Origin: Candidatus Omnitrophota bacterium | GTDB lineage: Bacteria; Omnitrophota; Gorgyraeia; JABMSB01 | Length of the DNA: 56,054 nt | Assembly: GCA_013202205.1 (NCBI GenBank) | Contig: JABMSB010000012.1 | Coordinates: 1 to 56,054 of the forward strand | Reading direction: 5' to 3' | Shown here: in pieces, positions 37,127 to 56,054 of the stretch | Layout: the number at the start of each line of letters is the position of its first letter | Numbering within the stretch: position 1 is the stretch's first letter | The notes under the pieces: model-generated | Told to the model about the DNA's origin: nothing | What the model saw: the letters and a program-made list of their open reading frames with translations, nothing else | The model's database searches: none | Program-made: the position numbers and the translations under genes

Positions 37127-38663
37127 CCAAGAGATAATTTTAGTAATAGATTTCGGATCCCAGTATAACCAGCTCATAGCGCGCCGCGTAAGAGAGCACA
37201 AGGCCTACTGCCGTATCGTCTCACCTAGGATAAGCCTAAAAAAGATAAAAGAGATCAATCCTAAAGGCATAATCCTATCCGGCGGCCCTTCGAGCGTCTA
37301 TCAGAAGAACGCCCCAAGGATAGATAAGAAGATATTGCGTTTAGGGATCCCGGTCTTAGGCATATGCTACGGCATGCAATTTTTGGCCAACGCGTGCGGG
37401 GGCAGGGTGGAACGCGCCAAAAAGAGGGAATATGGATACGCGGAACTTATGGTCGATGACGCGAGAGACCTATTTTCCGGGATTCCGCGTCAATCTCAAT
37501 CTTGGATGAGCCATGGGGACAAGATAATCAAGGTCCCGCCAAATATGGTACCACTTGCCCATACATCAAATACACGCGTGGCGGCATTTGCAGATCGCGA
37601 TGCCAAGATCTATGGTGTGCAGTTTCATCCTGAGGTGGCGCATACCGAACAGGGCATGGCGATATTGTGGAATTTTCTCTATCGCATATGCCGCTGCAGC
37701 GGCGATTGGACAATGGCATCTTTCATCAATGAAGCTGTACAAGAAATACAAAGCGTTGTGGGTGATGAGAAGGTTGTGCTTGGTTTAAGCGGCGGAGTCG
37801 ATTCATCCGTGACAGCGGTCTTGATGAATAAGGCCATAGGGAAGAGGCTCTATTGCGTCTTTGTAGATAACGGTGTCTTAAGAAAAGATGAAGCTGTGAG
37901 GGTGCGCGATGTATTTGCCAAGCGCCTGAAGGTAAACCTAAAGGTTGTCGATGCATCGAAGCATTTCCTGCGCAAATTAAAAGGCATCACCGATCCGGAG
38001 CGCAAACGTAAGATCATAGGCAATGAGTTTATCCATATATTTGAGAAAGAGGCAAAGAGGATAGGCAACGCGAAGTTCCTCGCTCAGGGCACGCTCTATC
38101 CCGATGTCATAGAGTCGAAATCGGCTTTCGGCGGCCCCAGCGCGACCATAAAGACACACCACAACGTAGGGGGGTTACCTAAGAAGATGAAGCTGAAATT
38201 GGTAGAGCCCCTGCGGGATCTCTTCAAGGATGAGGTGCGCCTCTTGGGAGAGGAGATGGGGATGCCGGAGGATATCGTATGGCGCCAGCCATTTCCCGGG
38301 CCGGGTCTTGCGGTCCGCATAGTGGGTGAAGTTACGAAGGCCCGATGTGATATATTGCGGGAGGTCGATTATATAATAGTCAATGAGATAAAGAAGACAG
38401 GTCTTTACCGCAAGCTCTGGCAGTCATTTGGCGTACTCTTGCCGATAAAGTCTGTCGGTGTAATGGGTGATGAGAGGACATACGAACATGTAGTTGCAAT
38501 ACGCGCGGTTACGAGCCAGGATGCGATGACGGCCGACTGGGCGAAGATCCCATACGATATATTAGCAAAGATCTCCAATCGCATAATAAACGAGGTTGAC
38601 GGGGTAAATAGAGTTGTCTATGACATATCATCGAAACCGCCATCAACGATAGAATGGGAGTAA
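37119..38663 (+). CDS. guaA: GMP synthase (glutamine-hydrolysing)
   Basis: [64 protein letters not shown]. Confidence 0.97.
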
Positions 38664-38666
38664 GAG

Positions 38667-41600
38667 GTGCCGAAGCGTACTGATATAAAGAAGATCATGA
38701 TAATCGGATCCGGGCCTATAGTCATTTCGCAGGCCTGTGAGTTCGACTATTCTGGCACACAGGCGTGCAAGGCCCTCAGGGAGGAAGGATATAAGGTAAT
38801 CCTCGTCAACTCCAACCCAGCTACCATAATGACTGATCCGGATTTCGCCGATAGGACCTACATAGAGCCGGTAACCCCCGAGATAGTTGCCAAGATCATA
38901 GAGAGAGAGCGTCCTGATGCCCTGCTGCCCACGCTCGGCGGCCAGACAGGCTTAAATACCGCCGTTAAGGTCTACGAAATGGGTATATTGAAAAAGTATA
39001 AGGTAGAGATGATAGGCGCCAAGTACGAATCGATAAAGAAGGCCGAGGATAGAAACCTCTTTAAGAAGGCGATGGAAAAGATAGGCCTCGATCTCCCAAA
39101 GAGCGGTTTGGCCCATTCCATGGAAGAGGCGAAACAGATAGTTAAAAAAATAGGTTTCCCCGTGATTATAAGGCCCAGTTTTACGCTCGGCGGGACCGGA
39201 GGAGGCGTTGCAAATAATGCCGAGGAGTTTGCACTCCAGGCCGCCTTAGGGCTTGAAAATAGTATGACTAAAGAGATACTCATTGAAGAATCTATCCTTG
39301 GGTGGAAGGAGTATGAGTTTGAGGTGATGAGGGACCTCAAGGATAATGTAGTTATCATATGCTCAATAGAGAACTTCGATCCGATGGGGATACATACAGG
39401 TGATTCGATAACGGTTGCGCCTGCGCAGACACTGACTGACAGGGAATATCAGAGGATGCGTGATGCTTCCATAGCCGTCATACGGGAGATAGGTGTTGAG
39501 ACGGGCGGTTCGAATATACAATTTGCCGTTAACCCCGAGGATGGCCGCATGGTAGTAATAGAGATGAATCCGAGGGTTTCACGCAGCTCTGCCTTAGCCA
39601 GCAAGGCGACGGGATTTCCGATCGCGAAGTTCGCGGCAAAGCTTTCTGTAGGATACACGCTCGATGAAATACCTAACGATATAACAAAAAAGACTCCGGC
39701 GAGTTTTGAGCCGACGATAGATTATTGTGTAGTTAAGATACCGCGTTTTACATTTGAAAAATTCCCTAAAGCAGATCCAACACTTACCATATCGATGAAA
39801 TCTGTCGGTGAGACGATGGCGATAGGCAGGACCTTCAAAGAAGCATTGCAGAAAGGTCTGAGAGGGTTGGAGGTAGGTGTCAGCGGCCTTGACGGTAAAG
39901 GAGGCATAACAGACTTAAATAAACCCGTAAGTGACTATATGCTCGAGACGAAATTAAAGGTCCCCACTGCCGAGAGGATATTCTATATAAAGAGGGCAAT
40001 ATTGGATGGATGGTCAACAGATGAGATCTACAAACTCTCACATATAGATCCGTGGTTTCTTGAAAATATAAGGGAGATTTGCGAGCTCGAGAAACGCATA
40101 ATAAAAGAGGCCGAACGCGGCAATATTCCGGTCACCTTGCTCAAGAAGGCCAAGGAGACAGGATTTAGCGATCTGCACCTCTCAAAGCTCTTAAATGCCA
40201 GCGAAGAGGTTATAAGACAGACGAGAAAGAAGAACGGTATAGAGCCGGTCTATAAGCTCGTCGATACGTGCGGCGCGGAATTCGAGGCCTACACGCCTTA
40301 CTACTATTCCACATATGAGATCGAAGATGAGGTGCGCCGTTCAAGGAAGAAGAAGATCATGATACTCGGCGGCGGCCCAAACCGTATAGGCCAGGGCATA
40401 GAATTCGATTACTGCTGTGTCCATGCCAGTTTTGCGTTGAAGGAAGACGGTTATGAGACGATAATGGTAAATTCGAATCCCGAGACCGTATCGACCGACT
40501 ATGATACCTCCGATAGATTATATTTTGAGCCATTGACAAAAGAAGATGTCCTCAATATATGCGACAAGGAGAAGCCGGATGGGGTGATAGTCCAATTCGG
40601 CGGCCAGACACCGCTCAATCTTGCAGTGGCTTTGGATAGGGCCGGCGTACCTATAATAGGGACACCCCCGGCGGCCATACACCGCGCGGAAGACAGGGAA
40701 GAATTTAAGCAGATGCTCCAAAAATTAGGTTTAAGGCAGCCTGCCAACGGCACTGCCACATCCTTGCCTGAGGCATACGAAGCTGCCCGAGAGATCGGAT
40801 ATCCCGTTGTGGTGAGGCCTTCATATGTTTTGGGAGGCCGCGCCATGGATATCGTTTACGATGAGTCATCTATGGAAGGTCTTATACGCAATGCCAAAGA
40901 GGCCTCGCCCGAGCACCCTATATTGATAGATAAGTTTATCGAAGATGCCATAGAGGTAGATGTCGACATGGTCTCCGATGGTTCAAAGGGAATTATATGC
41001 GGCATAATGGAACATATAGAGGAGGCCGGTATCCATTCAGGGGATTCGGCTTGTGTCTTGCCGCCCCACACGTTGAGCGATGATATCATAAAAGGTATAA
41101 AAGAGACCACGTACATGCTGGCTGAGGAACTTGGTGTCGTGGGATTGATGAATATCCAATATGCCATAAAAGATGACCTTATCTATGTCCTTGAGGTGAA
41201 TCCGCGCGCAAGCCGGACCGTGCCTTTTGTGAGCAAGGCAACGGGCATACCCTGGGCCAAGGTTGCCGCGCGTGTTATGGCCGGCAAGAAACTAAAAGAT
41301 ATCGGGATAACAAAAGAGGTTAAGCCGAAGTACTTCTCGGTAAAGGAATCCGTGCTCCCATTCTCCAGATTCGCAGGTGTCGATACGGTGCTGGGTCCGG
41401 AGATGAAATCGACCGGCGAGGTAATGGGCATAGATTCCGATTTCGGCATATCATTTGCCAAGGCACAAAGCGGAGCAGGGTTGGATCTGCCCAGCAAGGG
41501 TACGGTATTTTTAAGCGTCAAGAATAGTGATAAACGTGATATAATCTTTATGGCGAAGAAACTGGCAGACCTTAAGTTTAAATTGGTAGCTACTAAGGGT

Positions 41601-41909
41601 ACCGCGAAGGTCCTCAAGGCCAATGGCCTCAAGGTAAAAGCCCTCAAGAGGGTACTGGAGGGCAATCCAAACGCGATAGACCTTATTAAGAGGAATGGTA
41701 TTCAGCTCGTTATAAATACGCCTACGGGTAAAGGGCCAAAGAAGGACCAGGCGTCTATACGCTCTGTTGCGGTTATGCATGGGATACCATGTATCACTAC
41801 GATGGCAGGCGCCCAGGCTACGGTGACAGGCATGGATGCCATGTCGAAGCGAAAGATGAAGGTCAGGTCTTTACAGGAATATCACGGATTGCGTAAAGCA
41901 GCTCTATAA
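38667..41909 (+). CDS. carB: Carbamoyl-phosphate synthase large subunit, canonical copy
   Basis: [74 protein letters not shown] domain. Confidence 0.96.
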
Positions 41910-41923
41910 AGAAGAGGTAATAT

Positions 41924-42169
41924 ATGTTTAACGTGAAGGTAGAAGTTACACTCAAGAAGCAGGTACTCGATCCACAGGGGTTGACGGTAAAGCACGCGCT
42001 CGAATCGCTCGGGTTTAATGAAGTCGATGAAGTAAGGATGGGTAAGTTTCTCGAGCTGAAGATTGAGGCGAAAGACCGCAAAGAGGCAGAAGAGAAGCTG
42101 CGCCGGATGTGCGAGAAGTTGTTGGTTAATCCGGTAATAGAAGATTATACTTACCAGATAGAGGGTTAA
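41924..42169 (+). CDS. purS: Phosphoribosylformylglycinamidine synthase subunit PurS
   Basis: [21 protein letters not shown]. Confidence 0.96.
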
Positions 42170-42171
42170 GG

Positions 42172-42867
42172 ATGAAATTCGGAGTAGTCGTTTTTCCGGG
42201 ATCTAATTGTGACCACGATTGCTATCATGTCTTAAAAGATGCATTGGGGCAAGATACTGCATATATATGGCATAAAGACCGCTCTCTGGATGGGTGTGAC
42301 TGTATAGTCTTGCCGGGTGGATTCAGTTATGGTGATTATCTACGCACGGGCGCGATAGCGAGATTCTCTCCTATAATGAACGAGGTTGAGGGTTTTGCCA
42401 AAAAGGGCGGCATAGTCATTGGAATATGCAATGGTTTTCAGGTTCTTTTGGAGTCGGGCCTCCTCCCGGGCGCAATGAGACATAACGATAGTGTCAAGTT
42501 CGTCTGTAAATTCGTAAATCTGAAGACGGAAAATATTGACACACCTTTTACGAATAGATGCAACAAGGGCCAGGTCTTGAGGATTCCTATTGCGCACGGG
42601 GAAGGCAACTATTATGTGGACGACAATACGCTAAAAGCTCTCAATAAAGAGAATAGAATTATATTCCGCTACTGCGATAAAAATGGTGAGGTAACGCCGG
42701 ATGCGAATCCAAACGGTTCACTCGAAAATATAGCCGGTATAGTAAATAAACCGGGCAATGTACTGGGTATGATGCCGCATCCTGAGAGATGCTCTGAGCC
42801 GGTGCTTGGGTTTGTAGACGGCAAGCTTATATTTGAGTCTATTATAGGATGGCTAAGAAAAAGATGA
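42172..42867 (+). CDS. purQ: Phosphoribosylformylglycinamidine synthase subunit PurQ
   Basis: [42 protein letters not shown]. Confidence 0.97.
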
Positions 42868-45068
42868 TAACAAAAGATATATATAGAGCGCTTGGCCTTC
42901 GAGATGATGAGTACGAGCGCATACTCAAGATCTTGGGACGCGAGCCGACCAAGACAGAGCTTGCGATGTTCTCTGTCGAGTGGTCGGAGCACTGCGGCTA
43001 CCCGCGTTCGCGCAAATACTTAAAGCTTCTGCCGCGAAAGGGGAGATATGAAGTACTCGTGGGCGAGGATGCCGGCGGCATCGTGGTCGGCGATACCGCT
43101 ATCATATTTAAGATGGAGTCGCATAACCATCCTTCCCAGGTCGAACCGAAGCAGGGGGCCGCGACAGGTGTAGGCGGCATAATAAGAGATATCTTCACAA
43201 GCGGCGCGCGCCCGGTAGCTTCGCTTAATTCACTCCGATTCGGGGAACTGACAGACCCATATACCAGATATCTCTTGCGTGGCGTGGTAGACGGAATACA
43301 ATTTTATGGAAATTGCATAGGTGTTCCGACAGTAGGAGGAGAGATATATTTTGATGACGCATATCAGGGCAACTGCCTTGTCAACGCGATGTCCTTGGGC
43401 ATTGCCAAGAGGGAGGATCTGGCAAGGGCTGTTGCACAAGGGACGGGCAATCCGATAATGTATGTCGGTTCTAAGACTGGGCGCGACGGGATAGGCGGCT
43501 GCAGTGTTTTAGCATCTGCGGAATTTGGCGAGGGTGATGCGAAGCGGCCAACGGTCCAGATAGGAGACCCGTTTACAGAAAAATGTCTTATAGAGGCGAC
43601 CATGGAGGCGCTCAAGACCGGGTACATAGTTGGGATTAAGGATATGGGCGCGGCCGGCCTTACCTGCTCATCGAGCGAGATGGCTTCGGCGGGCGGCTGT
43701 GGGATGGAAATAGATATATCTAAGGTGCCGCGGCGCGAAGAAGGGATGGAGCCGTGGGAAGTTATGATGAGTGAATCACAGGAGAGGATGCTCGTCTGCG
43801 TAAAGAAAGGAAAAGAAGAAGAGGTTGCCGAGATCTTTAAGAGGTGGGATTTAGAAGGCGTTGTTATCGGTTATGCAACGGATGATAAAAAGGTCCGCGT
43901 GTTGCACGAAGGAGAGGTCGTTGCCGAGATGCCGACAGCGTGCCTGACAGACCCGCCCCTATATGATATGCCGTACGAGGAACCCGCTTATATAAAGGAG
44001 GTAAGACGTTTTAAGCCATCCAATATAAAGGAACCATCTGATTATAATAAGGTACTTCTCGACCTTCTCGCATCGCCCACAATAACGAATAAGGCATGGG
44101 TCTATGAGCAGTATGACCATATGGTACAGGTAAATACGGCCGTATATCCCGGCTCTGATGCCGCTGTTTTGAGATTAAAGGGTTCAAAGAGAGGTATCGC
44201 CGTTACGACCGATTGCAACGGCCTCTATTGCTATCTTAATCCACGCGTGGGCGCACGCATCGCGGTAGCTGAGGCAGCACGCAATCTCGTATGTACAGGG
44301 GCGCATCCTGCCGGCGCGACCGACTGTCTCAATTTTGGAAACCCTGAGAAGCCGGACCGGTTCTGGCAGTTTAAAAATTGTGTCGAGTCGCTTGCCGAGG
44401 CTTGTGAGTACCTTAATATACCGGTTGTGAGCGGCAATGTATCTTTTTATAATGAGAGCCCCAACGGCCCTATCTTCCCGACGCCGACAATAGGCATGAT
44501 AGGTATCATAGAGGATATAGATAAGCGGTGCACGGCAAATTTCAAAGACGACGGAGACCTTCTCTTTCTTCTCGGGGAATGCAAGGATGAACTGGGGGGT
44601 AGTGAGTATTTGAAGAGGATACACGGAGTTAAGGCAGGGGACGCGCCTGAATGTGACCTTGAGATCGAGAAGAGGCTTCAGGAAGCATGTTTGGAGTTGA
44701 TAGATAAGGGTGCTATAAAGTCCGCGCATGACTGTTCCGAAGGTGGATTGGTTGTAGCGATAGCTGAATCATGTATATCTAGTGAGGGAGAGGAGAAGGG
44801 CGCTGCGATATCGGTACCTGAGATAGGATTTAGAAAGGATTCATATCTATTTGGTGAGACGCAGTCACGTATAGTAATTTCATGCAGTCCAAGAGAGAGA
44901 GAGAGGGTCAAAAAAATAGCCAGCTCACACAAGATCATTGCATCAGAGTTCGGGAAGGTAGGCGGCGATAGCTTGACATTCGAAATCTCAGACAAAAAGG
45001 TGATAAATATTGCCTTAAAGGATTTAATAAAGGCTTGGCGTGGAGGGTTGAAAAAATATGTTTCGTGA
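42849..45068 (+). CDS. purL: Phosphoribosylformylglycinamidine synthase subunit PurL (small type)
   Basis: [48 protein letters not shown]; alternative start at 42864. Confidence 0.97.
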
Positions 45069-46458
45069 GGGGCCTAAAGAAGCATGTGGTGTAATAGGAA
45101 TATTCGGCCATCCTGATGCGGCACGCCTGACATACCTGGGGCTCTATGCCCTGCAGCACCGCGGCCAGGAATCGGCAGGGATAACAGTTTCTGATGGCAA
45201 AAAGATCTCCTCCCACAAAGGGATGGGGTTGGTTGCTGATGTCTTCTCGGGCAATACCCTTGACAAGCTTAAAGGTGACAGGGGGATAGGCCACGTACGT
45301 TATTCTACGACAGGGTCTTCTAATATAAAGAATGCCCAACCGTTTATGGTAGAGTATTCGAGAGGAAAGATTGCCGTAGGCCACAACGGAAATCTCGTCA
45401 ATACAAGAAAGCTGCGCGATGAGCTTGAGGCGCATGGGGCAATATTCCAGACGACGATGGATAGTGAGCTGATAGTCCACCTTATAGCGAATGCCCGAAA
45501 AAAGAAGCTGGAAGATAATGTGGTCTATGCCCTTTCACAGCTAAAAGGGGCGTATTCACTGGTACTGATAACAGAAGATCAGGTAATAGTAGCGCGTGAT
45601 CCCAATGGTTTTCGGCCATTATGCCTTGGCAAGCTCAATGGCGCGTATGTGGTGGCGAGTGAGACGTGCGCATTTGACCTCATCCAGGCAAAGTATGTAA
45701 GGGATATAGAGCCCGGAGAGATACTCTTTATAAAGAAGGACGGCCTGAAGTCCGTGACGCCGTTTAAATCGGTGAAACACTCTTTTTGCATATTCGAATA
45801 TATATATTTCGCAAGGCCTGACAGCAATATATTCGGAAGCAACGTATATTTGACAAGGCGGCGATTGGGAGAGGAGCTTGCTAAGGAGGCGCCGGTCAAG
45901 GCGGATATGGTTATCCCTGTACCCGATTCAGGAAATTACGCCGGCTTAGGATACGCACACGCATCCGGCTTGCCGTTTGAGATGGGCATTGTGCGCAACC
46001 ACTACATAGGAAGGACCTTCATACAACCTTCACAGTATATCAGGGATTTTGGTGTAAAGATAAAGCTGAATCCGGTAAGGGAATTGATAAAGGGTAAAAG
46101 AATAGTCCTGGTAGAAGATTCTATAGTGCGCGGGACGACGAGCCGCACGAGGGTGCGCACGTTAAGGGATATGGGGGCTAAGGAGGTCCATATGTGCGTA
46201 AGCTGCCCGCCCCATATATTTCCTTGTTACTATGGAATAGATTTTCCTACGACCGAGGAGCTGATCGCATCATCAAAATCTGTTGAGAAAATAGCAGATT
46301 TTATAGGCCTTGATAGTTTGCAGTATCTGAGCGTTGAGGGTATGCTCAAATCTATGCCGATCTCAAGAAAAGAGTTCTGCACAGCCTGTTTTACGCGCAA
46401 CTGCCCTGTCGTACCAGATGACGGTGGAACTGATAAGAATGTATTCGAGAGGGATTGA
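45058..46458 (+). CDS. purF: Amidophosphoribosyltransferase (propeptide and [4Fe-4S] type)
   Basis: KEACGVIG, LQHRGQESAG, GHVRYST, CIFEYIYFARPDS, VEDSIVRGTT, CYYGID, FCTACF. Confidence 0.97.
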   Translation: MFREGPKEACGVIGIFGHPDAARLTYLGLYALQHRGQESAGITVSDGKKISSHKGMGLVADVFSGNTLDKLKGDRGIGHVRYSTTGSSNIKNAQPFMVEYSRGKIAVGHNGNLVNTRKLRDELEAHGAIFQTTMDSELIVHLIANARKKKLEDNVVYALSQLKGAYSLVLITEDQVIVARDPNGFRPLCLGKLNGAYVVASETCAFDLIQAKYVRDIEPGEILFIKKDGLKSVTPFKSVKHSFCIFEYIYFARPDSNIFGSNVYLTRRRLGEELAKEAPVKADMVIPVPDSGNYAGLGYAHASGLPFEMGIVRNHYIGRTFIQPSQYIRDFGVKIKLNPVRELIKGKRIVLVEDSIVRGTTSRTRVRTLRDMGAKEVHMCVSCPPHIFPCYYGIDFPTTEELIASSKSVEKIADFIGLDSLQYLSVEGMLKSMPISRKEFCTACFTRNCPVVPDDGGTDKNVFERD

Positions 46459-46499
46459 TACACAGCTTATAATCACATCCAACACAAGAAGGAGGAGTA

Positions 46500-49400
46500 A
46501 TGCCAAGGCGCGATGATATCCATAAGATTCTCATTATCGGTTCAGGCCCCATCATCATAGGACAGGCCTGCGAATTTGACTATTCCGGGACGCAAGCCTG
46601 CAAGGCATTGCGTGAAGAGGGATATGAGGTTGTTCTTGTCAATTCAAATCCAGCCACGATCATGACCGATCCGGGCATGGCCGATAAGACATATATCGAG
46701 CCGCTTACGGTGGAGAGCCTCGAGAAAATAATAGAGAAAGAGAGGCCTGACGCGCTCCTCCCAAACCTGGGCGGCCAGACAGGGCTCAACTTGTCCTCCA
46801 GCCTTTTCAAGGAAGGCATATTAGAAAAATACGGTGTCGAGATAATCGGCGTAAAAGAAGATGCTATAAAACGCGGCGAGGATCGCCTGGCGTTTAAAGA
46901 GACGATGAATAAACTTGGCCTTGAGATCCCGCGATCGAATATAAGTACCTCAGTTGAGGAGGCCGAAAGGATGGCCGAGGAGCTAAAGTACCCTGTTGTC
47001 CTAAGGCCCGCATATACGATGGGTGGCACAGGAGGCGGAATTGCATATAATGTCGAGGAGTTACGAACGATCGTTGCCCGAGGCCTCAGTGTTAGCCTTG
47101 TCAGTCAGGTGTTGGTTGAGGAGTCTGTCATAGGATGGGAAGAGTTGGAGCTTGAAGTGGTACGCGACCACAAAAACCAGCTGATCACGGTATGCTTTAT
47201 AGAAAATATTGATGCTATGGGCGTACATACAGGAGATAGTTTTTGCACAGCCCCCATGCTCACTGTACCTGAGCCGCTACAGAAGAGGATGCAGGATGCA
47301 TCGTACAAAATAGTCGAGGCGATCGGTGTTATCGGCGGGACGAATATACAATTTGCCCATAATCTCAAAGACGATAGATTGGTTGTTATCGAGATCAATC
47401 CACGCACCTCCCGGTCTTCGGCGCTTGCCTCAAAGGCCACAGGTTTTCCTATAGCGCGCATTTCAACGAAGCTGGCCGCGGGTCTTACCATGGATGAGAT
47501 ACCTTACTGGCGCGATGGGACGCTCGAGAAGTATACCCCAAGCGGTGATTATGTAGTCATTAAGTTTGCCCGTTGGGCTTTTGAGAAGTTCCCCCAGGCA
47601 AAAGATATTATAGGCACTCAGATGAAGGCGGTCGGTGAGGTTATGTCAATCGGTAAGACCTTCAAGGAGAGTTTCCAAAAATCGATACGCTCACTCGAAA
47701 TTGGCAGATATGGCCTCGGTGGAGCTAAAGATTTTAAGACGCTCCCTCTCGATCAGCTTAAAGAGCGGCTCGCCGTACCTTCAAGCGAGCGCATCTTTCT
47801 TATTTACGAGGCGCTGCGCAAAGGGATGGGGGTAGAGGATCTTTATAATTTAACATATATCGGACGACGGTTTATCAGTGAGATGAAGGAGTTGGTCGAT
47901 TTTGAAGAAGAGTTGTTGAAAGAGCCATGGAACAGCCTCTCCGATAAGAGCTTGATCAAGGCAAAGGAATGGGGCTTCTCAGACAGGTATCTGGCAGGCC
48001 TATTCGGCATACATGAAGCCGATGTCAGAAAGAGACGCCTCGCGCTTGGAAAATCTGCGCGGTATGAACCAGTACCCGTAAGCGGAGTAGAGAATGCCGC
48101 ATACTACTATTCTACACATTGTATCAAAGAGGATAAGGTGCCTGTTTCTTCAAATAAGAAGATAATGATATTGGGTGGGGGGCCGAACAGGATAGGACAG
48201 GGCATAGAGTTTGATTACACCTGTGTCCACGCGGCATTTGCCTTGCGTGATGAGGGGTATGAGTCGATTATGGTAAATTGCAATCCGGAGACCGTATCGA
48301 CAGATTACGATACCTCCAACAAGCTCTACTTCGAACCCCTTACAGTAGAAGATGTCCTGGCTATCTATGATAAGGAAAAACCCGAAGGCGCCATTGTGCA
48401 GTTTGGCGGGCAGACACCGCTTAATATAGCGCAGGAGTTGAAAGAGTGCGGGGTCAATATTCTTGGGACGACCCCGGAATCGATCCGTTTTGCCGAAGAC
48501 CGGGAGCGGTTTCGTGAGAAGATGATAGCGCTCGGGATTCCGCAGCCGGAAAGCGGCACCGCGCGTTCTCTCGATCAAGCCCTTACGATCGCCAAGGCCA
48601 TCGGTTACCCTTTAATGGTACGGCCATCTTTCGTGCTTGGTGGCAGGGGTATGGAGATCCTTTATGATGAGCAGATGCTGCGTAAATATGCCGTTGAGGC
48701 GATCAAGGTAAGCCCCGAATACCCGATGCTTATCGATAGATTTTTGGAGCAGGCCGTTGAGACGGAGGTCGACGCGCTATGTGATGGCGAAGATACCTTT
48801 GTGGCATCGATCATGGAACATATAGAGCATGCAGGTATCCATTCAGGGGATTCAGCCTGCGCAATTCCAACGAGGACTATAGACCCTAAACACCTGAAGA
48901 CCATAAATGAATATACCGCCCAGATCGCTCGCGAGCTTAAGGTGGTAGGGCTTATGAATATCCAGTATGCGATATGTGATGATAAGGTCTATATCCTTGA
49001 GGCCAATCCAAGGGCATCCCGTACCGTACCGATAGTTTCAAAAATACGAGGTATCCCTATAGCTCGCATTGCAACACTCCTCATGCTCGGTAAGAAAATA
49101 AAAGATTTCCCGGAATTAAAAGATGAGAAGCTGAATTATGTCGGGGTTAAGGAAGCGGTCTTTCCATTTAATATGTTCCCTGAGGTAGATCCACTCCTCG
49201 GTCCTGAGATGAGGGCTACGGGAGAAGTTATGGGTATCGGCGATACATTCGGCCTTGCTTACTATAAGGCAACAGCGGCAGCAGGGACTAAACTTCCCGT
49301 AGATGGGAATGTGTTGATCACCGTTGAGGATAAGGATAAACCGTATCTATTGCCGATAGCAAAGAGGATACACAAGCTAGGATTCTCCATCTATGCGACA

Positions 49401-49742
49401 TCCGGTACAGGTAATTTCCTTAAAGAGAATGGCATACCTACCACCGAGATAAAGAAATTACACGAAGGCAGGCCGAATATCGCAGATGCGATCCAGAATG
49501 GCGAGATTAAGCTTATCATCAATACGCCGGTGGGCAGAAGCAGCCAGTATGATGATAGCTACATTCGCATGAAAGCGATACAGCACAAGATTCCTTATAT
49601 CACCACAATGGCCGCAGCTGAGGCAAGTGTTGAGGGGATCGAGGCTGTCAAGAATAAGAGCATTGCTCCAAAAGCACTACAGGATTATTATAAGGAAGCG
49701 AATAGAGATGCCGGAAAAGTTACTACAAAAACGGGGAACTAA
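46500..49742 (+). CDS. carB: Second, divergent carbamoyl-phosphate synthase large subunit
   Basis: Full two-ATP-grasp architecture ([34 protein letters not shown]) but with the divergent segment [20 protein letters not shown]. Confidence 0.93.
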
Positions 49743-49755
49743 AAAGGGGCCGGAT

Positions 49756-51273
49756 ATGGTAAAAGGAAAAGGTTTTGACAACGAGAAGTATCTGAAGGAG
49801 CAGACTCAGGCGATCTTAGAGCGGGTGGAGCAATTCGGTGACAAGCTCTATCTCGAGTTTGGCGGAAAGATCGTATATGACTACCATGCCTCAAGGGTCT
49901 TGCCGGGGTTTGCGCCCAACGTCAAGATGCAGCTCCTTAAGAAGCTGAAGGATAAGGCAGACATAATACTTTGCATATATGCCGGAGACATCGAACGTAA
50001 AAAGGTTAGGGCCGATTTTGGCATCACCTACGATGCGGATGCCCTCAGGATGATCGACGAATTAAGGGATTGGGGACTTAATATAGCAGCGATAGTAATA
50101 ACCCGCTTTGATGATCAGCCATCGGCTAAGATCTTTAAGAATAAGCTTGAGCGGCGCGGAATAAAGGTCTATACACACCGTTTTACAAAGGGTTATCCGA
50201 CGAATGTCGACCTGATAGTCAGCGACGAAGGTTATGGCGCAAATGCTTATATCGAGACGAAGAAGCCGCTCGTTGTAGTCACAGGGCCCGGTCCCGGAAG
50301 CGGAAAACTTGCCACTTGCCTCTCGCAGCTATATCATGACCATAAGAAGGGGGTCCACTCCGGGTATTCCAAATTCGAAACATTTCCTATATGGTCCATA
50401 CCGCTTAAACATCCCGTAAATGTCGCTTATGAATCGGCCACAGCCGACCTTAGAGATTTTAACATGATAGACCCTTTCCATCTGGAGGCGTATGGCAAGA
50501 CCACGATCAACTACAACCGCGACGTGGAGGTCTTCCCGGTCATTAAGAGGATCCTGCAGAAGATAATGGGGGAGGAGGCGGTATACAAATCGCCAACCGA
50601 TATGGGGGTAAATCGCGCGGGGTTTGGCATAATCGATGACGCAGTTGTAAAAGAGGCAGCCAAGCAGGAGATCCTCAGGAGATACTTCCGCTACGCGTGC
50701 GAGTACGCGCTCGGTTTTGTCGATAAGGAGACGGTCGAGCGGGCTGCACTCCTGGTAGAGGAGATCGGTATGAAGCCTGAGAATAGGGCCGTTGTTGAGC
50801 CGGCGAGAAAAGCCGCAATCGATGCAGAGAAGAAGAACAAGGATACCAGGTCCATATCCTGTGGCGCGGCCATAGAATTACCAAATGGGACAATCGTAAC
50901 AGGGAAGAATTCACCGCTTATGCATGCTCCCTCAAGCCTCACACTGAATGCGGTAAAGACGCTTGCTGAAATACCCGATAAGATACACATCTTATCACCG
51001 GCCACGATAGAATCTATAGGAAAACTGAAGAAGTCTATATCAAACAGGAAGGCGATAAGCCTCGATCTGGAGGAGACGCTCATAGCCCTCAGCATAAGCG
51101 CGGCAACAAATCCTACAGCTCAGTTGGCCATGGAGAAGTTGAAGGACCTGCGCGGCTGCGAGGTCCATCTGAGCCATATGCCTGTGCCGGGTGATGAGGC
51201 GGGCCTGCGCAAATTAGGGATGAACCTGACCAGCGAACCGAACTTCGCCACCGAAAGCCTCTTCATGGATTAG
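49756..51273 (+). CDS. DUF1846 (UPF0371) family protein with a P-loop-like motif
   Basis: [64 protein letters not shown]; start taken at ATG 49756. Confidence 0.9.
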
Positions 51274-51298
51274 CCCCCACCCAAGACGTTTCTCAACT

Positions 51299-51335
51299 CA
51301 ATCGGAGATCTGCCCTATTTCCAATCGGAGATCTG
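51299..51335 (+). repeat. Two 14-bp direct repeats CAATCGGAGATCTG, 23-bp period
   Basis: Exact copies at 51299-51312 and 51322-51335. Confidence 0.9.
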
Positions 51336-51369
51336 TCCCCTACAGGCAGGGCTTCATAAAATTCAAGGA

Positions 51370-51421
51370 GTTATCTACAGGAGTAGGGCACGCTTAAACA
51401 TGCCTGACAGTTGTGGATAGC
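51370..51421. repeat. 52-bp imperfect palindrome, copy 1
   Basis: GTTATCTACA-GGAGTAGGGCACGCTTAAACATGCCTGACAGT-TGTGGATAGC followed by TTTT; 3 differences from copy 2. Confidence 0.92.
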
Positions 51422-51449
51422 TTTTATTCGTTTGCATCATAAAATTCCC

Positions 51450-51478
51450 TTGCATAACCTAATCCTGTGGGATATACT
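51450..51478 (+). promoter_or_regulatory. Promoter candidate for the pilin gene
   Basis: TTGCAT-N17-TATACT; ATG 9 nt downstream, no SD. Confidence 0.6.
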
Positions 51479-51487
51479 ATTTTTATC

Positions 51488-51946
51488 ATGAAAAAATCCT
51501 TTACCCTAATAGAGCTTCTTATCGTAGTCATCATTGTAGGTATCCTGGCTACCGTGGCCTTGCCGCAGTATCAGAAGGTGGTGAAGAAGGCAAGGTGGAC
51601 TGAAGCGGTAAGCATGTTAGGCGCCATTAGAAAGGCGTGTGAGATTTATTACCAGGGGCATGGTGTAAAGCCTCAGAAGTCAGTTGCAAATGACTACATT
51701 TATTTAAATGGTACGGCGAAAGAAGATGAATTTGCATCATGGATTGATATAGAGATTCCCGAGCCTAGACCGCTTGGCAATTGGCGATTTATTTACAGTT
51801 TATATGCTGACAATCGTCCCGACGAAGTAGGTTGGGTTCATGTCGAAGAAAGCGGAGATGATGAATGGACCTCAGGCGAAGATGCCTTTATAAATATCTA
51901 TTATGACGGAAGATTGGTTTCCGGACCAGATGCCCCAGAATTTTAA
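51488..51946 (+). CDS. Type IV pilin-like protein (prepilin N-terminal cleavage/methylation domain)
   Basis: MKKS|FTLIELLIVVIIVGILATVALPQY class III signal; variable acidic C-terminal region. Confidence 0.9.
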   Translation: MKKSFTLIELLIVVIIVGILATVALPQYQKVVKKARWTEAVSMLGAIRKACEIYYQGHGVKPQKSVANDYIYLNGTAKEDEFASWIDIEIPEPRPLGNWRFIYSLYADNRPDEVGWVHVEESGDDEWTSGEDAFINIYYDGRLVSGPDAPEF

Positions 51947-52041
51947 TAATAGATACCATAATTGTTTGCAAATTTAGCCTTACCTCACCTGACCATCCCC
52001 ATAATTTCCTAATCGACTTATCTTGCCTCAAGGAGTATCAA

Positions 52042-52093
52042 GTTATCCACAGGAGTAGGGCACGCTTAAGCATGCCTGACAGTTGTGGATAAC
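52042..52093. repeat. 52-bp imperfect palindrome, copy 2 (arms are perfect DnaA-box sequences)
   Basis: GTTATCCACA-GGAGTAGGGCACGCTTAAGCATGCCTGACAGT-TGTGGATAAC followed by TTTTTTT; centred on GCTT|AAGC. Confidence 0.92.
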
Positions 52094-52102
52094 TTTTTTT
52101 GC

Positions 52103-52131
52103 TTGACAAAGGCGGGATAGTTAGCTATACT
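52103..52131 (+). promoter_or_regulatory. Sigma70 promoter of the marR-efflux operon
   Basis: TTGACA-N17-TATACT; ATG 8 nt downstream. Confidence 0.8.
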
Positions 52132-52137
52132 AACTAT
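52117..52137. promoter_or_regulatory. Probable MarR operator
   Basis: ATAGTTAG-N5-CTAACTAT perfect dyad spanning the -10 element of the marR gene. Confidence 0.75.
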
Positions 52138-52139
52138 TA

Positions 52140-52574
52140 ATGAAGCTAAGGAAATTTGCCGAGAGGATAAGCTATATACACCCCAGCCTGATGAAGGCCT
52201 TTGTCAGCAGCCGGCCCAAGGATATCGCCAAGATATCACTGCCCCAGATACTCATATTGGAGATATTGCTGGTAAAGGGCAAGGCCATTATGAGCGAGCT
52301 TGCAAATGACCTGCGCATAAGTACTGCCGGAACTACAGGGCTTGCGGACAGGATGATCGCAGCCGGATACTTAAAGAGATATCGCAGTAAGGAGGATAGG
52401 CGGCTGGTCTATGTAGAGATGACGGCAAAGGGCAGGCGCACAATAGAGGATATCAGGGCAAGGAGGCTCGGCCTGGTAGAGGACCTATTCAAAGATATCC
52501 CCGAAGATGAGAGGTGTGTATATCTAAATGTCATAGAGAAGATACACCAGAGATTAAAGCAGGGTGATAGATGA
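52140..52574 (+). CDS. MarR-family transcriptional regulator
   Basis: ISLPQILIL, MSELA, TTGLADRMIAAGYLKR..SKEDRRLVYVEMTAKG. Confidence 0.92.
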   Translation: MKLRKFAERISYIHPSLMKAFVSSRPKDIAKISLPQILILEILLVKGKAIMSELANDLRISTAGTTGLADRMIAAGYLKRYRSKEDRRLVYVEMTAKGRRTIEDIRARRLGLVEDLFKDIPEDERCVYLNVIEKIHQRLKQGDR

Positions 52575-54049
52575 TAAATAAATATTTAATAATTCTATTT
52601 TTACTTATCTTTGGCACGAGTTGTATGTTCCTATATACCCTTGAAGCCCAAGAAGAGTTAAGGGATGGGGGCTTAAGACTCTCTTTGGTAGATGTGACGA
52701 AGATTGCCCTAAGGAATAATATCGATATCAAGATAGCCCGTTTCGATACCCTTATAAAGGAGCAGGACCTCGATGATTCGAAATCGATCTTCGATACCGT
52801 GCTCGATTCGTCCATAGGATATGAGGTCGATTCGCGCAAGCGCGCAAGTACGTTATCGGGCACCAAGACGACCACAACAGATTTTGATTTGGGCCTTGAG
52901 AAGAAGCTCGAGACAGGGACTACGGTAGGTGCGGATTTTTCCGTAGGGCGCGATACCAGTGACTCGGCATTTGCGGCAGTCAATCCGAGTTACGAACCCG
53001 AGGTCGGATTTTCAATAAAACAGGAATTTGGAAGGAACTTTTTCGGTATAACCGATAGAGGAGAGGTTGCGATAACGCGGCTGGACATAGAGAACGTAAC
53101 AGAGAAGTCCCTCGACGCAATAGAAGATTCGATAGCATCCGCCCAAAAGGCATACTGGGAAGTTGCCCTTGCTAAAGAGCGCAGAAAGATAAAGGAGGAT
53201 ATGCTTAAGCGGGCCCAGGATCTCTTAAAGGCAAATGAGGGCCGATTCGATATGGGATCGGTTGAGGAGACGGATCTATTGGCTTCAAAGGCCAATGCCG
53301 AGCAGCGCAAAAGTGACCTTTTAGTTGCCGAGGATGAAGCGAAGAGCAAGGTAGAGGAGCTCTTGCTTATCTTAAACCTCGAAGCAGGTATCCCACTAAC
53401 CCTAAAGGACGATTTGGATATCGAAGGCTCTGGCAGGGCAGATCTCAAGCTCTCCATGAATAACGCCATCGAATCGAGGCGTGATTATAAGAGATCCAAG
53501 AATGAGATAGAATCCAATAAGATCAAGATCAAGATGAAGCGTACTGACTTGTGGCCGCAGCTCGATCTCGAAGGTACATTGGCGGTCAATGGATTGGATG
53601 AGAAATATAACGATTCGCTTAAGGATGTTACCAGGGATAATTATAAATACTATATAGGTATAAACGTCTCCATGCCGCTTGAGAATAGAGAAGCGCGGAG
53701 TGCCTATGAGAAGGCAAAGCTGGAAAAGGCGAAGGCCATAGTGAGTCTTCAGCAGGTTGAGCGCAAGATATTGACAGATATAGATAAGAGAGTGAGGGCA
53801 GTCAATGTGGCGCTTAATGTGCTCGAGCACCAGATGCTTGTTGAGGGGTACCAATCGAATAAGCTGGATGAGGAGATGCAGAAGTATAACAGGGGCCGCT
53901 CAGATACCGATACACTCGTTAGGTTCCAGGAGCACCTGCTTACCGCACAACTGGCGACTGCGCAGGCAGCACTCGGTTATAAGACCGCGATTATAGACCT
54001 TGCGGCTACAGAAGATACCCTTCTTCAGAAAGCGGAAGGCGCACGATGA
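52571..54049 (+). CDS. TolC-family outer membrane efflux protein
   Basis: Signal/anchor segment, LSLVDVTKIALRNN, AYWEV, duplicated helical repeats, YNRGRSD..TLV. Confidence 0.85.
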   Translation: MINKYLIILFLLIFGTSCMFLYTLEAQEELRDGGLRLSLVDVTKIALRNNIDIKIARFDTLIKEQDLDDSKSIFDTVLDSSIGYEVDSRKRASTLSGTKTTTTDFDLGLEKKLETGTTVGADFSVGRDTSDSAFAAVNPSYEPEVGFSIKQEFGRNFFGITDRGEVAITRLDIENVTEKSLDAIEDSIASAQKAYWEVALAKERRKIKEDMLKRAQDLLKANEGRFDMGSVEETDLLASKANAEQRKSDLLVAEDEAKSKVEELLLILNLEAGIPLTLKDDLDIEGSGRADLKLSMNNAIESRRDYKRSKNEIESNKIKIKMKRTDLWPQLDLEGTLAVNGLDEKYNDSLKDVTRDNYKYYIGINVSMPLENREARSAYEKAKLEKAKAIVSLQQVERKILTDIDKRVRAVNVALNVLEHQMLVEGYQSNKLDEEMQKYNRGRSDTDTLVRFQEHLLTAQLATAQAALGYKTAIIDLAATEDTLLQKAEGAR

Positions 54050-56054
54050 AACTTGCGGAATTTTCAGTAAAACAATCCCTATTCATTAACCTCTTATCTA
54101 TCTTTCTCGTGATAGCGGGGGCGTTTACCCTTATCAACATGCAGCGAGAGGCCTTTCCTAACATAACCTTCGATATAGTGACGATAACGACTTCGTATCC
54201 CGGTGCATCTCCGGAAGAAGTCGAGAAGCTTATTACAACACCTCTGGAGAAGGAGGTCAAAAAGGTCGACGGGATCAAAGAGATGGTCTCGAGTTCGCGG
54301 GAGAACTCCTCTTTGATATATGTCGAGATAGATCCCGATGCCAGCGACAAGGATAAGGTGGTCAATGATGTGCAGCGCGCTGTGGATAGATTTAACGATC
54401 TACCCGATGACGCCAACGATCCTGTAGTTACCGAAGTGACGACGAAGGAGATGGCGATACTGGAGGTTTCCTTAAGCGGAGATCTGAGCGAAAAGAAGCT
54501 GCAGTTATATGCGGAGTCGCTCGAGGATCGCATCGAGGATATAGACGGGGTCGCCGCCGTCAAAAGAAACGGTTTTAGGGAGAGGGAGATTTGGGTTGAG
54601 GTCGATCCCGAAAAGATGAGAGAGTATTACGTCTCCTTAGAGGAGGTAATGGCCGCTCTTAAGGCACGCAATATCAGTATCTCCGGGGGTGATCTGATAG
54701 AAGGGAGTACAGAGTTTAACATAAGGACGACAGGAGAATTCTACACGGCCAAGGAAGTTGCCGATGTTATTATAAGGGCCAACGATGCCGGCAACTGGCT
54801 GAGGGTAAAAGATGTCGCCGTAGTTAAGGATGGTTACAAAGACGAAAATTTGATACATAAGACCCGCGGTACACAAGCGATAAATCTTGTGGTGACCAAA
54901 AGGGAGTCCGGAGACGCCATAAGTATAGTGGAGGATATAGATAGGGTCCTTGACGATTTTAAGAAGTCAGCCCCGGCCGAACTCCAATTTTCTATAGTGA
55001 AGGATCTCTCATTTTACATAAAGCGCAGGTTGAATGTACTAAAACGGAATGCCGTTATCGGCGTAATCCTCGTCATCTCTTCGCTGCTTCTCTTCTTAAA
55101 CAGGCGCGTGGCGATTATGACTACACTTGGCATACCGATAGCATTTTTGACTACCTTTGCCGTTATGGGATATATGGGCATATCGATAAATCTTATAAGT
55201 ATGTTCGGCCTCATTATTGTCCTGGGCATGATAGTCGATGACGGTATTATAATATCAGAGAACGTCTATAGGCACATGGAGGAAGGGTTATCTCCGCGTC
55301 AGGCCGCTATAGTGGGTACGAGTGAGGTCATGAAGCCGGTATTTGCAACCATAGCCACTACCATGGCTGCATTCTCATCGCTCTTTTTTATGAGTGGGAT
55401 TATGGGTAGATATGTGCGCAATATCCCGATAGTCGTTATTGTGGCATTGATGGCTTCAATGATGGAGGCGTTTATAATACTTCCGTCACACCTGGCTGAC
55501 TTCGTAAGGCCCATAAAGAACAAGGTGGGCAAGATCATGTCGAAGAAGGAGTCGCCGTGGTTTGCTTCAATACTCAATTCTTATACCGCACTCTTAAAGG
55601 GTGCGATGAAGAACAGATATAAGGTCTGTCTCGTGGTTATAGCGGTTTTTATACTTTGCCTGGGTCTCGTCTTCAGCGGTGTTATGAGATTTTCACTTTT
55701 CGGTTCAGGCGGTGTAGAGGAGTTTTATGTAAGGGCTGAAGCGCCTGTCGGTACCCCACTGGAGGTTACCAGCGGGATGGTTTCGAAGATCGAGGATATC
55801 ATAACCACCCTGCCGCCGGAATATATGGATACCTTTACAACTACCGTGGGTCGCAGCGGGGAAGACTATGGATTCGATCCCTATGGCAGACAGGGGAGCA
55901 ACATGGCGCAGATAGCCGTCTATTTGACGCCAAGCCAGACACGGAAACGCGAGGCACAGGATATCATGGAAGATCTGCGCAAGACGGTTGAGGAGGCTAA
56001 GGTGCCGGGCTTTGAAAAGGTTGCCTTCTTTATCCCGGAGCATGGCCCGCCCAA
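54046..56054 (+). CDS. RND (AcrB/AcrD/AcrF family) efflux permease, 3' partial
   Basis: Manual translation from ATG 54046: REAFPNI, YPGASPEEVEKLIT.PLE, GMIVDDGIIISEN, PSH; open to the window end. Absent from the track because it has no stop. Confidence 0.92.
   Translation, partial: MKLAEFSVKQSLFINLLSIFLVIAGAFTLINMQREAFPNITFDIVTITTSYPGASPEEVEKLITTPLEKEVKKVDGIKEMVSSSRENSSLIYVEIDPDASDKDKVVNDVQRAVDRFNDLPDDANDPVVTEVTTKEMAILEVSLSGDLSEKKLQLYAESLEDRIEDIDGVAAVKRNGFREREIWVEVDPEKMREYYVSLEEVMAALKARNISISGGDLIEGSTEFNIRTTGEFYTAKEVADVIIRANDAGNWLRVKDVAVVKDGYKDENLIHKTRGTQAINLVVTKRESGDAISIVEDIDRVLDDFKKSAPAELQFSIVKDLSFYIKRRLNVLKRNAVIGVILVISSLLLFLNRRVAIMTTLGIPIAFLTTFAVMGYMGISINLISMFGLIIVLGMIVDDGIIISENVYRHMEEGLSPRQAAIVGTSEVMKPVFATIATTMAAFSSLFFMSGIMGRYVRNIPIVVIVALMASMMEAFIILPSHLADFVRPIKNKVGKIMSKKESPWFASILNSYTALLKGAMKNRYKVCLVVIAVFILCLGLVFSGVMRFSLFGSGGVEEFYVRAEAPVGTPLEVTSGMVSKIEDIITTLPPEYMDTFTTTVGRSGEDYGFDPYGRQGSNMAQIAVYLTPSQTRKREAQDIMEDLRKTVEEAKVPGFEKVAFFIPEHGPP

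Follow-up and report, generated by a model that had tools for sequence, protein, structure and literature searches.

Introduction

CarA, the glutaminase subunit of carbamoyl phosphate synthetase (CPS), and the CTP synthase PyrG are usually treated as near-universal. Two proteins linked to ammonia have been described at the same steps, and genes related to both stand side by side in the DNA considered here, a stretch of 56,054 nucleotides (the window) at positions 1 to 56,054 of contig JABMSB010000012.1, from a metagenome-assembled genome (MAG) of Candidatus Omnitrophota (GCA_013202205.1). The pair consists of carB2, which encodes a second CPS large subunit, and pyrJ, which encodes a protein of the DUF1846 (UPF0371) family.

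The first of the described proteins, Spd_0310 of Streptococcus pneumoniae, was renamed PyrJ in a preprint that reports that its gene is synthetic-lethal with pyrG, that cytidine gives rescue, and that the purified protein turns UTP into CTP when given ammonia, not when given glutamine (10.1101/2024.09.24.614635). As stated there, PyrG had hitherto been the sole known CTP synthase, about 31% of the genomes with pyrJ are without pyrG, the family occurs mostly in Firmicutes and Actinobacteria, and the protein has a P-loop ATPase-like N-domain and a C-domain that resembles cytidine deaminase. The same pneumococcal protein had been published earlier as a hemin-binding protein, and described as a homotetramer (PMC9238395). 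A DUF1846 gene is listed as essential in Clostridioides difficile (PMC12157513).

The second protein is the lone CarB2 (BT3866) of Bacteroides thetaiotaomicron, which has no glutaminase partner and is important for fitness with ammonium (Liu et al. 2021, PMC8121099). The carAB genes of that organism matter only when ammonium is absent, and BT3866 was proposed to be an ammonium-dependent CPS (PMC8121099). According to the same paper, all eubacterial CPSs found to date are glutamine-dependent, and Escherichia coli CarB alone works with ammonia.

The reading put forward here, to which we assign a probability of roughly 0.8, is that the DUF1846 product is PyrJ, an ammonia-dependent CTP synthase, that CarB2 is an ammonia-dependent CPS, and that the conserved pair is linked by pathway and nitrogen donor and not as a complex. 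CarB2 would add the first pyrimidine nitrogen, making carbamoyl phosphate from free ammonia, bicarbonate, and two ATP with no glutaminase; PyrJ would add the last, making CTP from UTP, ATP, and free ammonia. The two genes would thereby be connected through one donor at the first and last nitrogen-adding steps, not through binding of their products to each other. In the Omnitrophota class to which the MAG belongs, carB2–pyrJ is a conserved unit that accompanies CarA/CarB1 and PyrG, or that is present in their place, as in many genomes.

Results and Discussion

A DUF1846 protein related to PyrJ

The two genes are separated by a spacer of 13 nt (49743–49755), with the TAA of carB2 ending at 49742 and the ATG of pyrJ at 49756. 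This ATG fits the homologs of the protein; the program-made list of open reading frames (ORFs) opens the frame at GTG 49627, inside carB2. The first-pass annotation had noticed a DUF1846 gene 13 nt after the carB2 stop, on the same strand, with a P-loop-like motif in its product. Sequence and Pfam bear out the arrangement, and the motif reads TGPGPGSGK (Table 1). DUF1846 had also been taken to be without assigned function, a statement that is out of date given the description of PyrJ as an ammonia-only CTP synthase (10.1101/2024.09.24.614635).

The 505-aa product matches PF08903 (DUF1846; E 1.3e-172, positions 2–332 of 333) and PF20921 (DUF1846_C; E 5.4e-54, positions 2–153 of 153), and scores 769.2 bits against NCBIfam NF010184 (cut-off 631), a family still called ‘hypothetical protein’. 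Among solved chains it matches 3bh1 (Corynebacterium diphtheriae DIP2346) at E 7.4e-162 and 7f00, which is SPD_0310, or PyrJ itself, at E 1.9e-154 (residues 3–503 versus 4–494). Pneumococcal PyrJ and the window protein have the same two-domain architecture over their full length, and the P-loop-like motif is kept. Seven of its nine residues (T176, P178, G179, P180, S182, G183, and K184) show no variation across 22 aligned orthologs; the motif may serve as an ATP site, in keeping with the preprint's P-loop ATPase-like description of the N-domain.

At Pfam E ≤ 0.001 no glutamine amidotransferase (GATase) family is found in the product, only the two DUF1846 domains. Most likely the window protein is a PyrJ ortholog that makes CTP from UTP, ATP, and free ammonia. 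PyrG (PF06418 plus a class-I GATase) carries out the same net reaction as that reported for PyrJ, but has an unrelated fold and includes a glutaminase domain.

The setting of the window pyrJ is a departure from the described family: the gene lies in Candidatus Omnitrophota, directly behind an orphan carB, whereas the family as outlined in the preprint is found mostly in Firmicutes and Actinobacteria. The main text of the preprint, its supplements being outside this check, contains neither ‘carbamoyl’ nor ‘carA’ (10.1101/2024.09.24.614635).

CarB2 and its clade

The architecture of CarB2 is complete, with two preATP-grasp/ATP-grasp halves, an oligomerisation domain, and an MGS-like domain by Pfam. 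The protein passes both CarB equivalogs (NF003671, 1512.7 bits, cut-off 599; TIGR01369, 1365.5 bits, cut-off 1027), and its best solved relative is E. coli CarB (PDB 1BXR/1JDB), at 1147 bits over residues 1–1049. CarB1 and CarB2 of the window are 53% identical over 1074 residues.

At the carboxyphosphate site, the catalytic residues, which we take to be R129, R169, E215, H243, N283, Q285, E299, N301, and R303 of the E. coli enzyme, are all identical between CarB2 and 1bxr and are invariant in 20 CarB2-type sequences (with the numbering shifted by one after residue 275). CarB2 and the glutamine-dependent CarAB of E. coli thus share the four-domain layout and the aligned catalytic residues. CarB2 differs from E. 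coli CarB in falling in a separate clade, in having IPYWRDGT (encoded at 47499–47522) in place of the LMNDITGGRT region, and in not being encoded next to carA. Within the YWRDG signature, Y336 and G340 are invariant in the same 20 sequences, an alignment that omits locus L103 with its in-frame stop. N336Y is one of 17 positions that discriminate the CarB1 and CarB2 clades; 12 of these fall in the carboxyphosphate domain, which receives ammonia, and 2 in the homologous carbamoyl-phosphate domain. Two of the substitutions, S233F and Q254L, adjoin C232 and A251, residues that presumably form part of the constriction of the ammonia tunnel in E. coli CPS; this is a lead only.

A FastTree phylogeny was computed from 82 full-length proteins, comprising 80 ORFs from loci L026–L125, each 1000 aa or longer, and the two proteins of the window, with shorter or broken copies dropped. 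It resolves two clades, each with a support of 100: a CarB1-type clade of 23 rows and a CarB2-type clade of 59 rows that spans at least 12 phyla, including Bacteroidota. In the CarB1-type clade, carA lies directly upstream in 17 of the 22 rows besides the window CarB1. Among the 59 CarB2-type rows, carA is missing from the 2.5 kb upstream in 48, a contig edge interrupts 8, and carA is present in 2. The 79 loci that were fetched with CarB2 divide in the same manner: 61 are CarB2-type (61–81% identity), one of them with carA upstream, and 18 are CarB1-type, 14 with carA upstream.

The nearest matches to CarB2 in named genomes are in Candidatus Omnitrophota MAGs (74–81% identity), and the protein clusters with carA-unlinked CarB of Bacteroidales/Bacteroidaceae MAGs at 66–68% identity. 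The likeness to BT3866, drawn through such clade members and not through the sequence of BT3866 itself, is that of a CarB of full length whose gene stands apart from carA, the genome having a carA–carB pair as well. CarB2 of the window is most likely a CarA-independent CPS that uses bicarbonate, two ATP, and free ammonia to form carbamoyl phosphate with no glutaminase subunit. The description of CarB2 as an orphan in the first-pass annotation needs one correction: purF, not carA, is directly upstream, as that term implies, but one carA lies 9.6 kb upstream in the same gene string.

It is this carA that gives weight to another explanation, in which CarB2 is a second large subunit of CPS of the ordinary kind (arginine- versus pyrimidine-specific in Bacillus, for instance), glutamine-dependent and sharing CarA with CarB1, so that its place by pyrJ would reflect pyrimidine-operon organisation only. 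One carA and two carB genes are present in a single string, the carA frame is intact in an independent contig (see below), no part of the CarB architecture is missing from CarB2, the allosteric MGS-like domain included, and at one locus (L069, Pelovirga) the order is carA–carB2–carB1. Against this stands the concentration of the clade-specific substitutions in the ammonia-receiving domain, as well as the behavior of the genes in B. thetaiotaomicron, where carA is co-fit with carB (r = 0.85) and not with carB2 (r = −0.02) (PMC8121099). Taken with the distribution of carA, to which we now turn, this makes an ordinary second subunit improbable.

Replacement of carA and pyrG across the class

A sample of 201 genomes of the MAG's Omnitrophota class was compared (codes with G denote genomes, codes with L loci). 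CarB2-type proteins in this sample are those at ≥68% identity, all other CarB being at ≤57%; the assignment covers the best 150 of 300 CarB matches, with G006 added, so that CarB2-type counts are lower bounds. PyrJ is found in 111 genomes (plus 4 tiny fragments), pyrG in 143 (plus 3 fragments or weak matches), carA in 151 (plus 1 remnant), and CarB2-type in at least 86. At least 40 genomes have all four genes, and at least 30 have CarB2 and PyrJ with neither carA nor pyrG, two of these being single-contig genomes (G035 and G155); at least 7 combine CarB2 with carA and pyrG. Among the matches listed, 67 genomes have carA and pyrG only, 19 have PyrJ, carA, and pyrG, and 11 have PyrJ and carA with no pyrG; nine further states comprise 1 to 5 genomes each, 4 genomes having none of the four genes.

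The genes are not distributed independently. Among the matches listed, PyrJ is present in 76 of the 86 genomes with CarB2-type and in 35 of the 115 without it (76 and 10 versus 35 and 80). The two canonical genes tend to be missing together, pyrG being absent from 40 of 50 carA-less genomes as compared with 18 of 151 that have carA (40 and 10 versus 18 and 133). Where a full pyrG is lacking, PyrJ is usually there (48 of 58 genomes); expressed the other way, 48 of the 111 sampled PyrJ genomes are without full pyrG, in agreement with the occurrence of the pneumococcal PyrJ family in genomes without that gene.

carA occurs in 50 of the 86 CarB2-type genomes, among the matches listed, a proportion that would suit a large subunit sharing CarA with CarB1. 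At least 36 of the 50 carA-less genomes, however, have CarB2-type, nearly all with a single CarB match, and two single-contig members of this group keep pyrF and two carbamoyltransferases. Thus CarB2 of Omnitrophota is often the sole CPS, carA being wholly missing, a situation not described for B. thetaiotaomicron in the available text of PMC8121099.

As a rough check on shared ancestry, the state in which CarB2 and PyrJ alone remain was followed through the family codes: it is seen in 17, and in 15 of them, among the matches listed, another sampled member has carA and pyrG. Since so many of the family codes keep another member with both genes, the joint absence of carA and pyrG arose repeatedly. 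A possible snapshot of the process is provided by G022 (locus L029, contig C12, about 38.7–47.3 kb), in which an intact carB2–purF–pyrJ–PurF-like cluster is flanked by what is left of carA (positions 2–40 of 126), pyrG (positions 1–113 of 265), and the carB1 C-terminus. The remnants look like canonical genes in decay.

The same pattern was seen in a first sample of 41 genomes (40 relatives and the window's own genome; CarB2-type at ≥69% identity), with PyrJ in 22, pyrG in 33, carA in 36, and CarB2-type in 16. All 8 genomes without pyrG have PyrJ, and none of the 19 without PyrJ lacks pyrG. The 5 carA-less genomes (G006, G009, G029, G031, and G035) coincide exactly with those that have CarB2-type as their sole CarB, and pyrG is missing from each of the 5. 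OMP decarboxylase (pyrF) and two carbamoyltransferase genes are present in all five genomes of the CarB2-and-PyrJ-only state that were tested (G009, G029, G031, and G035 of the first sample and one further genome), two of them single-contig. Where the genes of the pyrimidine pathway are retained and CarB2 and PyrJ alone are left, gene presence suggests that CarB2 would work without a glutaminase, and that PyrJ can be the sole CTP synthase in a phylum outside Firmicutes and Actinobacteria.

Carbamate kinase was considered as another source of carbamoyl phosphate in carA-less genomes and was set aside: no genome among the 41 of the first sample, including G009, G029, G031, and G035, has a TIGR00746 match above the cut-off, and the only two sub-threshold matches are both in genomes that bear carA. 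Because no carbamate kinase rises above the cut-off, CarB2 is the only candidate source of carbamoyl phosphate found in the tested carA-less genomes.

Two features of the CarB matches were noted in passing. In G014, G017, G030, and others, CarB1-type genes appear as half-length ORFs of about 550 aa, with separate N-half and C-half matches, which suggests a split carB. Single in-frame stops (TGA, TAA, or TAG) occur within otherwise full-length CarB matches in G028, G007, G036, G027, and others.

Linkage of carB2 and pyrJ

Both genes could be placed in 75 class genomes (using the best 150 of 300 CarB matches). In 27 of these, which belong to 10 family codes, carB2 is followed by pyrJ on one strand at a distance below 300 nt, and in 14 more the genes are within 10 kb. 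The resulting 41 of 75 is far above the chance of about 1.3% that two random genes lie within 10 kb on a 1.5-Mb genome. In 3 genomes the genes are far apart on one contig, and in 31 they are on different contigs. The first-pass annotation had held that an adjacency unique to this genome, with independent distribution of the two families, would refute its proposal of a new partner or pathway for CarB2. Within the class the YWRDG-type CarB clade and DUF1846 in fact co-occur and adjoin, at least 27 genomes having carB2 directly before pyrJ, and the proposal is therefore not refuted on this ground.

Does the pairing have a logic of its own? One may suppose that pyrJ is just prone to lie near genes of nucleotide synthesis, with carB2 as one of several possible neighbors. 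Searches with tblastn on stretches of about 18 kb around pyrJ in 21 relatives lend this some color: CarB2-type is directly upstream in 4, with pur/gua genes intervening in 3 more, another carA′/carB′ pair or a carB1 fragment is near pyrJ in 5, and no car gene occurs within about 8 kb in 9. The neighbors of pyrJ in relatives also include purL, purF, pyrG, and guaA, or none of these, and in 34 of the 75 genomes the genes are distant or on separate contigs. A lack of any pairing logic is nevertheless very hard to reconcile with direct adjacency in 10 family codes, with the correlated presence of the two genes, with the absence of carA and pyrG together, and with the dead glutaminase of the other pyrJ-linked CPS discussed below.

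The opposite view, that DUF1846 is a physical partner of CarB2 which replaces CarA by delivering nitrogen to it, regulating it, or consuming its carboxy- or carbamoyl-phosphate, was that of the first-pass annotation. It draws on the 13-nt spacing with a ribosome-binding site, on the adjacency and co-occurrence just given, and on the 48 of 59 clade rows in which carB2 has no carA upstream. PyrJ is a homotetramer, and E. coli CPS also forms tetramers. We regard such a partnership as very unlikely, and found nothing in its support. PyrJ has a reaction of its own, UTP to CTP, and no amidotransferase domain. In the class sample, among the matches listed, 35 PyrJ genomes are without CarB2-type and 10 CarB2-type genomes are without PyrJ, and two single-contig genomes have the two genes 0.5 and 1.5 Mb apart. 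Five CarB2-type genomes from five other phyla contain no PyrJ (0/5), with carA and pyrG in 4 of 5 each, and pyrJ is in the flanks of 3 of 5 Omnitrophota-titled CarB2-type loci compared with 0 of 56 others. PF08903 has no match in the B. thetaiotaomicron control genome, where CarB2 is functional by the published fitness data (PMC8121099); in this respect the window CarB2, paired with PyrJ, is unlike its Bacteroides counterpart. Since PyrJ is absent from all five CarB2-type genomes of other phyla, CarB2 does not need PyrJ, and it is in Omnitrophota that the two are paired. A complex prediction with CarB2 residues 1–400 and PyrJ, run without controls, gave a score of 0.00 and no verdict, and speaks neither for nor against binding.

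Other signs of an ammonia donor

In G010, G017, G030, and G034 a carA-like gene, carA′, lies beside pyrJ. Its product has Ser or Gly instead of the catalytic Cys and has no His-Pro-Glu. The carA′ genes pair with a third type of CarB, about 60% identical to CarB1. Judged by these residues, the carA′–carB′ pair beside pyrJ would be a second ammonia-type CPS. A dead glutaminase in another CPS linked to pyrJ points to a shared ammonia donor rather than to generic clustering of nucleotide genes.

A PurF-like gene shows a comparable loss. The protein is 28–36% identical to PurF and reaches 207.5 bits against the TIGR01134 cut-off of 350, and 5 of the 6 N-termini that were read begin with MSG or MGG instead of the catalytic Cys. 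It may be a PRPP amidotransferase that uses ammonia. The gene comes after carB2-type in 9 of 61 loci, and in G015 and G022 it lies beside pyrJ. More generally, the paralogue often adjoins carB2-type or pyrJ in Omnitrophota and Thermodesulfobacteriota; in the window's genome it is unlinked, on another contig.

Taken together, a broader proposal can be made, which we hold at somewhat better than even odds: CarB2 and PyrJ, often with the Cys-less PurF paralogue, would constitute a dedicated ammonia route for the nitrogen-adding steps of nucleotide synthesis that fully replaces CarA and PyrG in about 1 in 7 genomes (at least 30 of 201, two of them single-contig), and the CarB2 clade, with members in at least 12 phyla of mostly anaerobic bacteria, would be a family of stand-alone ammonia-dependent CPSs.

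The gene string and its surroundings

The pair closes a string of nine plus-strand genes (35994–51273) with gaps of −19 to 41 nt, in the order carA–guaA–carB1–purS–purQ–purL–purF–carB2–pyrJ (Table 1). The string encodes the amide-nitrogen steps of purine and pyrimidine synthesis, namely CPS, GMP synthase, formylglycinamidine ribonucleotide (FGAM) synthase, PRPP amidotransferase, and CTP synthase. In two relatives pyrG is found within the same cluster, as carA–carB1–pyrG–carB2–pyrJ (G032) or carB2–pyrJ–pyrG (G002). In the window, pyrJ fills the CTP-synthase slot that pyrG holds in these relatives.

Table 1. Positions of the features discussed; coordinates are those of the window unless a locus or contig is named
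Feature	Position	Strand	Basis and remarks
carA, CPS glutaminase small subunit	35994–37126	+	PF00988 and truncated PF00117; frames 35994–36875 and 36659–37126
guaA, GMP synthase (glutamine-hydrolysing)	37119–38663	+	Pfam GATase, NAD_synthase-like, and GMP_synt_C
carB1, canonical CPS large subunit, CarA-linked clade	38667–41909	+	Pfam; NCBIfam NF003671, 1722.5 bits
purS	41924–42169	+	Pfam PF02700
purQ, FGAM synthase glutaminase	42172–42867	+	Pfam GATase_5
purL	42849–45068	+	Pfam AIRS, AIRS_C, and FGAR-AT linker
purF, amidophosphoribosyltransferase	45058–46458	+	Canonical propeptide and Cys; TIGR01134, 544 bits (cut-off 350)
carB2	46500–49742	+	1080-aa ORF; Pfam PF25596 (two), PF02786 (two), PF02787, PF02142
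YWRDG signature of CarB2 clade	47505–47519	+	Residues 336–340; translation
AAAGGGG ribosome-binding site of pyrJ	49743–49749	+	Within the 13-nt spacer; read from sequence
pyrJ (DUF1846/UPF0371)	49756–51273	+	505 aa; Pfam PF08903 and PF20921; NCBIfam NF010184
TGPGPGSGK P-loop-like motif of PyrJ	50281–50307	+	Translation; kept in 3bh1 and 22 orthologs
carA′ without Cys and His/Glu of the glutaminase triad	L039:7739–8803; L038:7136–8203; L044:11188–12237; L036:16682–17725		Sequence reading
PurF-like paralogue	G000 contig C30:10856–12289 (−); L071:9246–10688; L040:10756–12147; L029:7201–8586		

Scans for signals did not define the borders of an operon. Between 35400 and 52200, promoter-like sites (25, with 24.0 expected) and terminator-like sites (16, with 15.2 expected) occur at chance frequency, and no Rfam family reaches its gathering score in 33000–53000, where no known riboswitch or leader was found.

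Outside the string, pyrJ is followed directly (51467–56052) by the gene for a small protein that bears the N-methylation motif of type IV pilins; next come genes for MarR, an outer-membrane efflux protein, and an AcrB-type pump, the last truncated where the window ends. At the other end of the window (146–10606) lies a cluster for a membrane-bound [NiFe] hydrogenase of the Mbh/Mrp type (NADHdh, Complex1_49kDa/NiFeSe, MbhD/E, MnhB, MNHE, and a HycI protease), and this suggests that the organism lives anaerobically and cycles hydrogen. Upstream of the string there are also siroheme and sulfite-reduction genes, mnmG, and a MoxR–DUF58–BatA/B/C/D operon of the aerotolerance type (24880–33399). Two ORFs, at 22787–23686 (299 aa) and at 26748–27773 (341 aa), the latter within the MoxR–Bat operon, have no Pfam match at E ≤ 1e-5.

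The genome of the window

The MAG is a 1.50-Mb assembly in 94 contigs, 91.9% complete. Its carA is split into two frames by one missing base near 36793, within the GICLGHQ motif of the catalytic Cys (36780–36800). An independent 11.6-kb contig from a freshwater metagenome has one extra C behind 36793, which gives TGC CTC GGC CAC CAG (C-L-G-H-Q), and shows no other difference over 1001 bases; the run behind this contig may be the source of the window itself, and contigs drop rare variants. Because the contig restores the frame, the frameshift probably stems from an error in assembly or represents a minor variant within the MAG. In two further runs (X2 and X3) no contig spans the site, which bears on neither possibility. 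The idea that carA is a pseudogene and both CarB proteins are orphans was dropped, the frame being intact in the independent contig.

Neither a Pfam model nor tblastn with a relative's PyrG (E ≤ 1e-3) finds pyrG in this assembly, and PyrJ is the only CTP synthase found in it. The genome also contains pyrD, pyrF, two carbamoyltransferases, and glnA.

Several considerations weigh against an ammonia-dependent CarB2 and PyrJ as set out above. Since this genome has a carA that is probably intact, its product could serve CarB2 as well. The absence of pyrG may be due only to an assembly gap, since the MAG is 91.9% complete and pyrG is present in 40 of the 43 sampled genomes with CarB2, PyrJ, and carA, among the matches listed. 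Glutamine amidotransferases (purF, purQ, and guaA) are present together with glnA, and thus the organism does not avoid glutamine in general; a general avoidance of glutamine was rejected on account of glnA, guaA, purQ, and the canonical purF. The operon status of the nine-gene string would follow from spacing and strand.

The activities assigned to the window's proteins would follow from the published activity of PyrJ and the fitness phenotypes of CarB2. They are carried over from a pneumococcal ortholog, of the ~60% identity class and known from a preprint alone, and from the fitness phenotypes of the Bacteroides CarB2, for which Liu et al. themselves call for biochemical confirmation (PMC8121099). 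The CarB tree is a FastTree phylogeny, and because its loci were fetched with CarB2-derived peptides the sampling is biased. Fisher values for the class-wide associations are tiny but were computed without a species tree, and they overstate the case because related genomes are not independent. Exceptions to the replacement pattern exist as well: 9 class genomes have neither pyrG nor PyrJ, and, among the matches listed, 10 CarB2-type genomes are without PyrJ and 14 carA-less genomes are without CarB2-type. Many of these exceptions are incomplete MAGs.

Implications

For the window alone the yield is modest: a gene pair of known type within a nucleotide operon. Although genuine and conserved, the carB2–pyrJ pair does not give CarB a new partner; PyrJ and orphan CarB2 are each of known kinds. 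What is new is the quantified co-occurrence and adjacency of the two genes and the pattern, seen through the sampled class, of carA and pyrG being replaced together; these, and the gene identities on which they build, are matters of observation. We found no paper that links CarB2 with DUF1846/PyrJ or describes joint replacement of CarA and PyrG, in a literature search limited, for the preprint, to its main text; on PyrJ the preprint was the one relevant paper that came up.

The pattern has consequences for annotation, in that DUF1846 is still a ‘hypothetical protein’ in NCBIfam and CarB2 is automatically named ‘glutamine-hydrolyzing’. The distribution provides comparative-genomic support, independent of the experiments, for the reassignment of both PyrJ and CarB2. 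If the proposal is true, there are bacteria that possess neither a glutamine-dependent CPS nor a canonical CTP synthase.

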